NCBI GenBank assembly: GCA_016207245.1
Contig: JACQQA010000005.1
Coordinates: 68-64,067, forward strand
Source: Candidatus Magasanikiibacteriota bacterium
GTDB taxonomy: Bacteria; Patescibacteriota; Patescibacteriia; Magasanikbacterales; UBA922
Length of the DNA stretch: 64,000 bases
Reading direction: 5' to 3'
The notes under the pieces are model-generated. The model saw only the letters and a program-made list of their open reading frames with translations. It was not told the origin of the DNA and made no database searches. Positions 60-1,162 of this stretch are shown one piece after another. Within the stretch, counting starts at the first letter, position 1. Each line of letters opens with the position of its first letter. Both the position numbers and the translations under genes were made by a program.

Positions 60-830
60 ATGAATAATATGCATCCAATTCAAGAAAAAATCTTGAAACT
101 AATGGAAACACAAGATGTTTCTAATTTAACATTGCGCGAGATTGCCGTAAAAATTGGCGAATTCGGCAGTCCGCAAAAGATCAAACATCACCTTAATCAA
201 TTGGCGCAGAAGGGTCTGATTAGAATTGATAAGAAAAATAACAAAATTGAAAAGATAAAAGCCGGTGTGAATAAAGAAGGTAGTTTGATTTCTTTGCCTA
301 TCTATGGTTCCGCAAATTGCGGCGAGGCGACTTTTTTTGCCGATGATCATGTTGAGGGGTATTTAAAAGTGAGCGAACATATTTTGGGTAATTTAATAGA
401 TAAGATAAAACACCTTTTTGTTTTACGCGCCGTCGGTACTTCAATGAATCGGGCGGATGTATCGGGTAATGCAATTGAAAATGGCGATTATGTAATTGTT
501 GACAAAGAGGTTGCGGTTCCCAGCGATGGCGATTGCGTTGTTTCCGTCATTGATGGCGTGGCAAACATTAAGAAGATTTACGTTGATAACAAAAATCAGC
601 AATTTATTTTAGTTTCCGAATCAAATCAGGACTTTCCCCCAATTTATGTTCATCGCGTTGACCTGGATAGTTATTTAATGGCCGGTAAGGTCGTGAAGGT
701 TATGAAACAACCGGATGAGTTGGCGGCATGGAGACAAGCCGGTGCTCGTGATATTTTGAAAGATCTCGGGCCGATTTCAAAAGGGGATTACGATTATTAT
801 GAAAATTTATGTTTACAAGAAGCGATGTAA
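60..830 (+). CDS. LexA-like repressor / S24 family peptidase (winged-helix DNA-binding domain plus self-cleaving peptidase domain)
   Basis: 256 aa. N-terminal wHTH (LTLREIAVKIGEFGSPQKIKHHLNQLAQKGLI). C-terminal S24 core with Ser in AVGTSMN and Lys in ANIKKIY. A Cys-Gly (SANCGEA) sits where LexA/UmuD have their cleavage bond. Confidence 0.8.
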   Translation: MNNMHPIQEKILKLMETQDVSNLTLREIAVKIGEFGSPQKIKHHLNQLAQKGLIRIDKKNNKIEKIKAGVNKEGSLISLPIYGSANCGEATFFADDHVEGYLKVSEHILGNLIDKIKHLFVLRAVGTSMNRADVSGNAIENGDYVIVDKEVAVPSDGDCVVSVIDGVANIKKIYVDNKNQQFILVSESNQDFPPIYVHRVDLDSYLMAGKVVKVMKQPDELAAWRQAGARDILKDLGPISKGDYDYYENLCLQEAM

Positions 831-1162
831 AATGCGGTGATATACTTTGGACGCAGTTTGACCCCGGAGTCGGCCATGAATTTCAAGATAAAAGGCCTGC
901 GTTGGTTGTTCAAAACGATGGGCAATTAGCAAAATCCAATTTAATCACACTTGTGGCCATGACCGGCAATATAAGGAATAAGATGGAGGATGACATTATC
1001 ATTGAGCCGGATGAGAAAAATGGATTGAGAAGCGCATCTGTGATAAAAGTATATGATATTACCTCCTTTGATTATCAGAGGATTTTTGGTAAAATTGGCA
1101 AAGCAAGCGAACAAATAATGGTGGAAGTTAGACGGTATTTAGAAAAGCATTTTGGATTATAG
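809..1162 (+). CDS. PemK/MazF family type II toxin (mRNA interferase)
   Basis: 117 aa with the PemK/MazF N-terminal signature GDILWTQFDPGVGHEFQDKRPALVVQ. Its start overlaps the upstream stop by 22 nt. Confidence 0.8.
   Translation: MFTRSDVKCGDILWTQFDPGVGHEFQDKRPALVVQNDGQLAKSNLITLVAMTGNIRNKMEDDIIIEPDEKNGLRSASVIKVYDITSFDYQRIFGKIGKASEQIMVEVRRYLEKHFGL

Follow-up and report, generated by a model that had tools for sequence, protein, structure and literature searches.

A LexA-type repressor with a portable C-terminal tail as the putative antitoxin of a MazF toxin in Patescibacteria

How is a MazF toxin kept in check when the gene in front of it encodes a LexA-like repressor instead of a MazE? The question is raised by a locus at the start of a 64,000-nt stretch of DNA from a Candidatus Magasanikiibacteriota bacterium (contig JACQQA010000005.1, positions 68-64,067; hereafter the window, whose positions serve as coordinates throughout), where a gene for a protein with a winged helix-turn-helix (wHTH) and a self-cleaving S24 domain runs into a gene for a MazF/PemK-family endoribonuclease. 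We propose, with a probability of roughly two in three, that this operon is a type II toxin-antitoxin (TA) system whose antitoxin is a full LexA-type repressor (wHTH plus S24) that has gained a portable C-terminal tail of ~35 residues. The system is a real, conserved and apparently undescribed variant of the type II MazEF systems: the searchable full-text literature, outside which most papers in subscription journals fall, yielded no account of the tail or of a MazF antitoxin of LexA type. The original prediction, made from the bare sequence, had called such a partner for MazF unusual, which stands relative to that literature and fails for Patescibacteria, where the arrangement proves to be common.

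The LexA-like gene (60..830, + strand) is an open reading frame (ORF) of 256 aa from the ATG at 60, identified by Pfam matches, alignment with E. coli LexA and an AlphaFold2 (AF2) model. Because the family begins with MHxIQ and a database protein of 100% identity (P0001, from an assembly of Candidatus Magasanikbacteria; Patescibacteria, or candidate phyla radiation, CPR) has 253 aa, translation probably starts at the ATG at 69 rather than at 60. In the LexA-like protein Pfam detects only Peptidase_S24 (58.6 bits) and LexA_DNA_bind (27.1 bits; cut-off 23.7), both above their cut-offs, and neither the AbrB/SpoVT nor the ribbon-helix-helix (RHH) DNA-binding domain of canonical MazE and PemI antitoxins. 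The gene behind it (809..1162, + strand; 117 aa) matches PemK_toxin (PF02452) at 81.5 bits against a cut-off of 23.1; the S24 and MazF family assignments made initially are thus both confirmed by profile searches. The predicted overlap of the two ORFs is exactly 22 nt (809..830, + strand) and is a variant of a shorter one. In most relatives the LexA-like protein ends at ...YYxNL and its stop codon overlaps the next ATG (AAT TTA TGA); here the TGA stop has become TGT and reading continues for seven codons, counting the stop, which turns the 4-nt ATGA overlap into one of 22 nt and leaves the MazF ATG (AAT TTA TGx) in the same place. A candidate antitoxin gene directly 5' of the toxin gene and overlapping it, by 22 nt here and by ATGA in most relatives, is a feature of type II TA systems, and at the level of gene structure it shows the two genes to be translationally coupled. 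No other plausible antitoxin ORF is present on the + strand between the promoter and position 1237, and the DNA 5' of the window start, taken from two short contigs (L081/L082), contains intergenic region only, with no small antitoxin ORF. The noted lack of a MazE-, AbrB- or RHH-type antitoxin ORF therefore holds on both sides of the window start.

The alignment with E. coli LexA stops at residue ~219 of the LexA-like protein, and the remaining ~35 residues constitute an extra tail, PDELAAWRQAGARDILKDLGPISKGDYDYYENL, beyond the LexA fold (705..827, + strand; KQPDELAAWRQAGARDILKDLGPISKGDYDYYENL plus the six extra residues CLQEAM). This tail is strongly conserved in the family, with the consensus KxPDELxxFRxAxAxDILKxLGPISKEExDYYxNL, and Pfam scans of ten tail-bearing proteins assigned it to no family. 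AF2 models it as two helices (residues 220-236 and 241-255) with low confidence (predicted local distance difference test, pLDDT, 53-73), as would be expected for a segment whose folding depends on a partner.

Across the family, which amounts to 656 relatives found, nearly all of 245-256 aa and from Patescibacteria, the tail goes together with the toxin. We surveyed the neighbourhoods of 80 loci on contigs from one genome per species, among them 39 full-tail, 35 tail-less and 4 half-tail LexA-like genes. A MazF or a MazF remnant lies directly downstream of the full-tail gene in 37 of the 38 testable loci, mostly with the 4-nt ATGA overlap, the 39th locus having been left out because it lies at a contig edge; of these MazFs 32 are intact (105-125 aa), a further four truncated or aberrant, and the last a remnant. 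The pairing of S24 and MazF genes first noticed in the window is thus recurrent. Tail-less and half-tail relatives (35 + 4), by comparison, have a MazF homologue within 4 kb in none of 39 cases. A neighbour-joining tree built on the LexA core gathers the loci with tail and MazF into large clades, within which the half-tail group (L039-L042) is nested; this group has lost MazF as well as the terminal EExDYYxNL motif. Members of this group retain the first half of the tail only (PEEFxDSSAxDILKYGKPI) and then end in a poly-Lys run; the 3' neighbour, confirmed by Pfam, is a KilA-N gene in L039 and a RhuM-family gene in L040. Furthermore, pairwise distances between tails co-vary with those between MazFs (Mantel r = 0.58), also when the LexA core is regressed out (partial r = 0.44). 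By these comparisons, the LexA-like/MazF pair is a conserved module of Patescibacteria, found in dozens of related species.

The tail is not confined to LexA-like proteins. A tail-only profile gave 137 matches among 1.84 billion representative proteins, and those inspected place the tail at the C-terminus of a RelB-family RHH protein (P0174; Pfam RelB, 42 bits), of a ParD-like RHH protein (P0186) and a HicB-like protein (P0165), the latter two assigned by eye and without a Pfam match, of an XRE helix-turn-helix (HTH) protein (P0199), and of XRE proteins with a SocA_Panacea domain (P0202 and others); some further matches are proteins of 40-60 aa that consist of little beyond the tail. All four multi-domain non-LexA scaffolds whose loci were looked up are followed by a MazF of the same subfamily with a start/stop overlap. 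The MazF of the RelB-tail locus (L092) is 42% identical to that of the window and the MazF of the XRE-Panacea-tail locus (L093) is 48% identical; a MazF also comes next in the XRE-tail loci (L097/L098) and, frameshifted in an A-run, in the ParD-like-tail loci (L095/L096). In L095 (3237-3590) the frameshift falls within the A-run AAAAAAAAATAAAA, and a sequencing error or an inactivated toxin are both possible. A scan of metagenomes with a narrowed tail alignment yielded 47 loci, comprising 27 LexA-like genes (25 with MazF), 9 XRE-Panacea genes (9 with MazF) and 11 stand-alone tail-only ORFs. The constant pair across these loci is tail and MazF and the interchangeable part is the scaffold, an arrangement that, judged from gene content, repeats the classical modularity of type II antitoxins, and it is on this ground that we regard the LexA-like protein as the antitoxin and the tail as its toxin-binding part. 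The protein probably neutralises MazF through its tail, and a portable module for MazF neutralisation is what the tail most likely represents; the presence of the tail on XRE-Panacea proteins suggests that the neutralising element for this MazF subfamily is the tail, not the large domain. That the S24 protein acts as antitoxin and repressor is thereby strongly supported, at the level of sequence comparison, by evidence that the original prediction had missed, namely the contrast of 37/38 with 0/39 and the tail on RHH, XRE and Panacea scaffolds.

The toxin itself appears ordinary. The best solved relatives of the window MazF are B. anthracis and B. subtilis MazF (EndoA), which align with it end to end (E 7e-9), and its Arg29 and Thr52 align with Arg25 and Thr48 of the Bacillus enzymes, which we take to be catalytic. 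Both residues are kept in 33 paired MazFs save for conservative Ser substitutions. NCBIfam MazF models match the window protein below their equivalog cut-offs. A word-indexed search with this MazF reached 17 close relatives only, and the antitoxins of more distant MazF relatives are outside its range.

The scaffold of the putative antitoxin is LexA-like in every part preceding the tail. Its N-terminus has a LexA-type winged-HTH DNA-binding segment (129..236, + strand; residues 24-59, the LexA_DNA_bind match), with the sequence SPQKIKHH nearly invariant across the family, and is followed by the S24 autopeptidase and dimerisation domain (297..710, + strand; the Peptidase_S24 match), with Ser128 at 441-443 and Lys171 at 570-572. 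Aligned with E. coli LexA (LexA residues 27-200), the predicted self-cleavage bond Cys87-Gly88 (TGC GGC, 318..323, + strand) coincides with Ala84-Gly85, Ser128 with Ser119 and Lys171 with Lys156, so that the Ser/Lys dyad and the scissile bond between a small residue and Gly are both in place, as the original prediction had it. The cleavage site of UmuD is likewise Cys-Gly. The dyad residues and the cleavage-site Gly are invariant in 79 family sequences, and all 40 sequences with a tail (39 loci plus the window) keep the A-N-C-G cleavage motif, Ser128 and Lys171 without exception. Because the Cys-Gly site and the dyad are so strictly conserved, self-cleavage is likely functional and under selection. 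The AF2 model of the protein (pLDDT 77.9) has as its best Foldseek match the full-length LexA-DNA complex 3jso (E 1e-11), and the NCBIfam LexA model TIGR00498 scores 83 bits, below its equivalog cut-off of 110.95.

A sigma-70-type promoter precedes the operon (18..46, + strand), with a -35 box TTGACA (18-23), a 17-nt spacer and a -10 box TATAGT (41-46). The consensus promoter predicted at this place matches at 11 of 12 positions, better than any other site in window 1..2100, the region scanned; 38 of the 40 tailed sequences likewise have an upstream promoter-like site with a score of 9/12 or more. The -35 box doubles as the right arm of an inverted repeat, TGTCAA-N32-TTGACA, whose left arm lies just outside the window, in the upstream sequence of L081/L082. 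The left-arm hexamer TGTCAA is the reverse complement of TTGACA. Its enrichment within the 110 nt 5' of the gene is ~30-fold, for tailed and tail-less members alike, and it is helically phased relative to the -35 TTGACA (about -10, -19, -28 or -37, and sometimes +9 within the spacer); a near-consensus promoter with TGTCAA phased in this way at -10 to -37 is present at most loci. From this enrichment and phasing we infer that TGTCAA/TTGACA is the candidate operator of the family and that repression would occur by promoter occlusion, a LexA-like dimer binding across the -35 box of its own promoter; the LexA-like protein is most likely the autorepressor of its operon. No TGTCAA-N(4-34)-TTGACA pair occurs within the 64-kb window, the pair of the locus itself straddling the window start, and a single tandem TGTCAA-like match at 50502 is compatible with chance. 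The absence of further pairs fits autoregulation better than a broad regulon, 64 kb being a small sample.

Two further features of this upstream DNA and of the tail-less loci may be recorded here. DnaA-box-like nonamers (TTATCCACA/TGTGGATAA and one-mismatch variants) recur 5' of LexA-like genes (L002, L011, L017, L027, L045, L046 and L062); several keep a constant distance of about -13 to the -35 box, and others directly precede the ATG. Here, TTATTCACA stands at -26 (L081 144-152), a little 5' of window position 1. Such boxes may reflect control by DnaA, a nearby origin or a part of the operator. In tail-less loci another gene often follows within a few nt; as confirmed by Pfam, it encodes a C-5 DNA methylase (L050), a D12 N6-adenine methylase (L060), Vsr (L058) or MscL (L043), and by eye only it resembles a DNA methylase with a DPPY motif (L065, L068 and L080) or MscL (L047). 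Judging from such neighbours, genes for restriction-modification or repair may be under the control of the tail-less LexA-like repressors.

In order to rationalise how such an antitoxin could work, we consider the parts together. MazE-type antitoxins combine a DNA-binding part with a short C-terminal segment that binds the toxin and blocks its RNase site. By analogy, the acidic, aromatic two-helix tail ending in EExDYYxNL would bind the MazF dimer and block its RNase site, while the LexA-like dimer holds down the promoter. A signal, for example RecA filaments on single-stranded DNA formed upon DNA damage or phage attack, would then trigger cleavage between wHTH and S24; another co-protease or basal autocleavage may be the trigger instead. 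The original prediction supposed that cleavage would release the toxin, and here it needs revision: Cys87-Gly88 lies between wHTH and S24 and the tail at the far C-terminus, so cleavage alone predicts derepression, with the DNA-binding domain detached and the putative MazF-binding tail left on the S24 fragment. This fragment could still hold MazF, and MazF would be freed only once the fragment is degraded. Fragments of E. coli LexA are degraded by ClpXP and Lon. The link from cleavage to toxin release thus rests on an assumed degradation step, which counts against that part of our proposal, and with such a step the S24 domain would give the antitoxin a signal-dependent instability. Activation triggered by damage is accordingly the tentative part of the scheme, with the odds somewhat against it.

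Several points weigh against our proposal, among them that the tail is not exclusive to MazF. The tail profile finds nothing better than E 0.26 in the PDB and so no detectable similarity to solved antitoxins, and the association between tail and MazF is expressed by a Fisher p of 3e-21 that ignores shared ancestry. The sole exception among the 38 testable loci (L024, 4760-5563) and one other locus (L099) have a Bro-N protein gene in place of MazF after an intact tailed LexA-like gene; in L085 (8774-9523) and L109 that place is taken by a gene for a NERD-domain protein, and in L084 (8738-9166) such an intact gene, whose product has Val instead of Gly88, is followed with a 4-nt overlap by a GNAT acetyltransferase gene. 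Moreover, no MazF was detected at the 11 stand-alone tail-only ORFs, two of which have fewer than 350 nt of downstream sequence; the ORFs of L139 and L145 lie directly in front of RhuM-family genes (346 and 339 bits). Stand-alone ORFs of ~45-63 aa are those of L116, L122, L126, L131, L134, L137, L139, L143 and L145; these may represent orphan antitoxins with an 'anti-addiction' role, what is left of deleted LexA-like genes, or the partners of a different toxin. The GNAT, NERD and Bro-N genes suggest partner swapping on the same scaffold, and together with RhuM they leave room for a weaker interpretation, that the tail has a broader role, for example as a degron or an interaction peg. Carried to its end, this would make the tail a generic part of mobile repressors, serving degradation, oligomerisation or co-repressor contact, with MazF neutralised elsewhere on the protein (for instance by S24) or not by it at all. 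The extreme C-terminal position and the conserved YYxNL end would suit a degron, and the loci just listed, where the tail occurs with other downstream genes or by itself, fit as well; yet tail and MazF are the only elements common to five unrelated scaffolds, the half-tail clade lost MazF together with the terminal motif, and the covariation of tail and MazF exceeds what the LexA core accounts for, so we consider a generic tail unlikely.

The LexA-like protein could also be the ordinary and only SOS repressor of the cell, with MazF an SOS-regulated effector in the lexA operon and a tail that neutralises nothing. A genuine LexA_DNA_bind domain, full-length LexA as the best structural match, a family spread across Patescibacteria with mostly one copy per genome surveyed, and tail-less relatives that share the upstream TGTCAA motif are what one would expect of such a repressor. 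MazF made from the same transcript without a neutraliser would, however, be lethal when expressed, and the tail tracks MazF and not LexA, preceding the same MazF on RHH, XRE and Panacea scaffolds. The related loci are not syntenic and their neighbourhoods, often resembling defence islands, hold restriction-modification, MutH/Vsr/Dcm, RadC and similar genes; one metagenome-assembled genome carries two copies (L016 and L032); the window offers no operator pair besides that of the locus, whose left arm lies upstream of position 1; and the TIGR00498 score of 83 is under the cut-off of 111. This explanation is, in our estimate, distinctly unlikely. Highly improbable is an incidental adjacency, or a catalytically dead S24 domain that merely serves as the dimerisation scaffold of an otherwise ordinary antitoxin: cleavage is here a prediction from sequence, and in the relative P0040 Gly88 is replaced by Val, but adjacency with a start/stop overlap recurs in more than 60 independent loci, and the invariance of Cys-Gly, Ser128 and Lys171 in 40 of 40 tailed sequences would be difficult to account for if cleavage were not selected for. 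A phage origin of the module is without support as well: in IMG/VR, two tail-less relatives of full length and four matches to the HTH only were found, and no pair of tail and MazF.

A bolder version of the antitoxin reading would merge it with an SOS role. Since most genomes have one copy, the DNA-binding domain is a true LexA domain and tail-less relatives in neighbouring lineages have the same operator motif, the only LexA of the cell, the SOS master repressor, might in a large clade of Patescibacteria itself be the MazF antitoxin. We regard this as rather unlikely. If it were true, RecA-triggered destruction of LexA would open the SOS regulon and at the same time unleash an mRNA interferase, so that sensing of DNA damage or phage would be wired directly to translational arrest in bacteria with minimal genomes.

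The remainder of the window adds little to the module. A PRiA4_ORF3-family gene follows MazF (1237..1872, + strand; Pfam 187.9 bits) and may be co-transcribed with the LexA-like and MazF genes, because no terminator-like site occurs before 1909-1931, 3' of this gene. As a member of the module it was rejected, being present in none of the 80 related loci, and the mobile-DNA context that had been read from it is not supported: the rest of the window consists of ordinary chromosomal genes, including those for FtsW/RodA and ribosomal protein L25. A second LexA/S24 gene, a second MazF and recA were not found in the 64 kb. Further along, 2556-6254 encodes a large surface or secreted protein of a kind typical of CPR genomes (1232 aa), with a signal-anchor-like N-terminus, a low-complexity Thr/Gly-rich linker, a Lamin Tail Domain (40.8 bits) and a weak region resembling zinc-dependent phospholipase C/S1-P1 nuclease (23 bits, under the cut-off), and a small DUF559 gene (11520-11900; Vsr-like endonuclease fold, 124.7 bits) sits amid housekeeping genes.

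Should our proposal be correct, the known antitoxin scaffolds would gain a repressor that senses a signal and destroys itself, one in which instability is built in and not left to housekeeping proteases, and the old question of how a type II toxin becomes activated would have a concrete answer. The tail would be a short, portable and previously unannotated MazF-cognate peptide common to at least five antitoxin architectures, and a handle both for studies of neutralisation specificity and for TA annotation in CPR genomes, where such genes currently go by the names 'hypothetical', 'S24 family peptidase' or 'LexA'. A 'LexA' label assigned automatically in Patescibacteria needs care, given that half or more of the closest family members in the survey appear to be TA components.

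Among known systems, MazEF/PemIK (Kis-Kid, E. coli MazEF, B. subtilis EndoAI-EndoA) is the closest. It shares with the present module a MazF/PemK-fold toxin, whose aligned Arg and Thr are kept here, an upstream and translationally coupled antitoxin gene, a promoter that is probably auto-repressed by the antitoxin, and a modular antitoxin in which a DNA-binding part is joined to a C-terminal toxin-binding segment, established for MazE and proposed here. The difference lies in the antitoxin, which here has ~250 aa, a LexA wHTH and a self-cleaving S24 domain rather than an AbrB or RHH domain, and a tail without detectable sequence similarity to solved MazE-type antitoxins. With the LexA/SOS repressor this protein has in common the two-domain architecture, the position of the cleavage site, the Ser/Lys dyad and the palindromic operator logic; unlike LexA, it has Cys-Gly, as in UmuD, rather than Ala-Gly, a score below the LexA equivalog cut-off and an extra module. 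DNA damage is also linked to toxin expression in LexA-regulated TA loci, such as yafNO, dinJ-yafQ and tisB of E. coli and higBA of Caulobacter. In the LexA-TA links known to us, the role of LexA is limited to repressing the TA promoter in trans, the antitoxin being a separate one, whereas here the LexA-like protein is the proposed antitoxin itself and is encoded within the operon.

Proteolytic inactivation of an antitoxin or repressor from within the module has been foreshadowed by two predictions. Makarova et al. 2009 (PMC2701414) drew an analogy to LexA for COG2856 (ImmA/IrrE)-Xre fusions, and in Campylobacter an 'S24-LexA-like' antitoxin beside HipA was predicted by TADB, which its authors call only a prediction (PMC7826846). 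The latter resembles our case in that an HTH plus S24 architecture was flagged computationally as a possible antitoxin; both differ from it in their toxins (RelE, PIN or HipA), in relying on a metalloprotease or an Xre-type HTH, and in that no toxin-binding tail was identified. Finally, PanA antitoxins, defined by the Panacea/SocA domain, pair with PemK/MazF-like toxins (Kurata et al. 2022, PMC8832971), and the main text of the NetFlax paper (PMC10440598) does not mention S24 or LexA. The scaffold described here is LexA-like and not Panacea, but the two have in common a modular, swappable architecture, and the same tail ends XRE-Panacea proteins encoded upstream of the same MazF subfamily.

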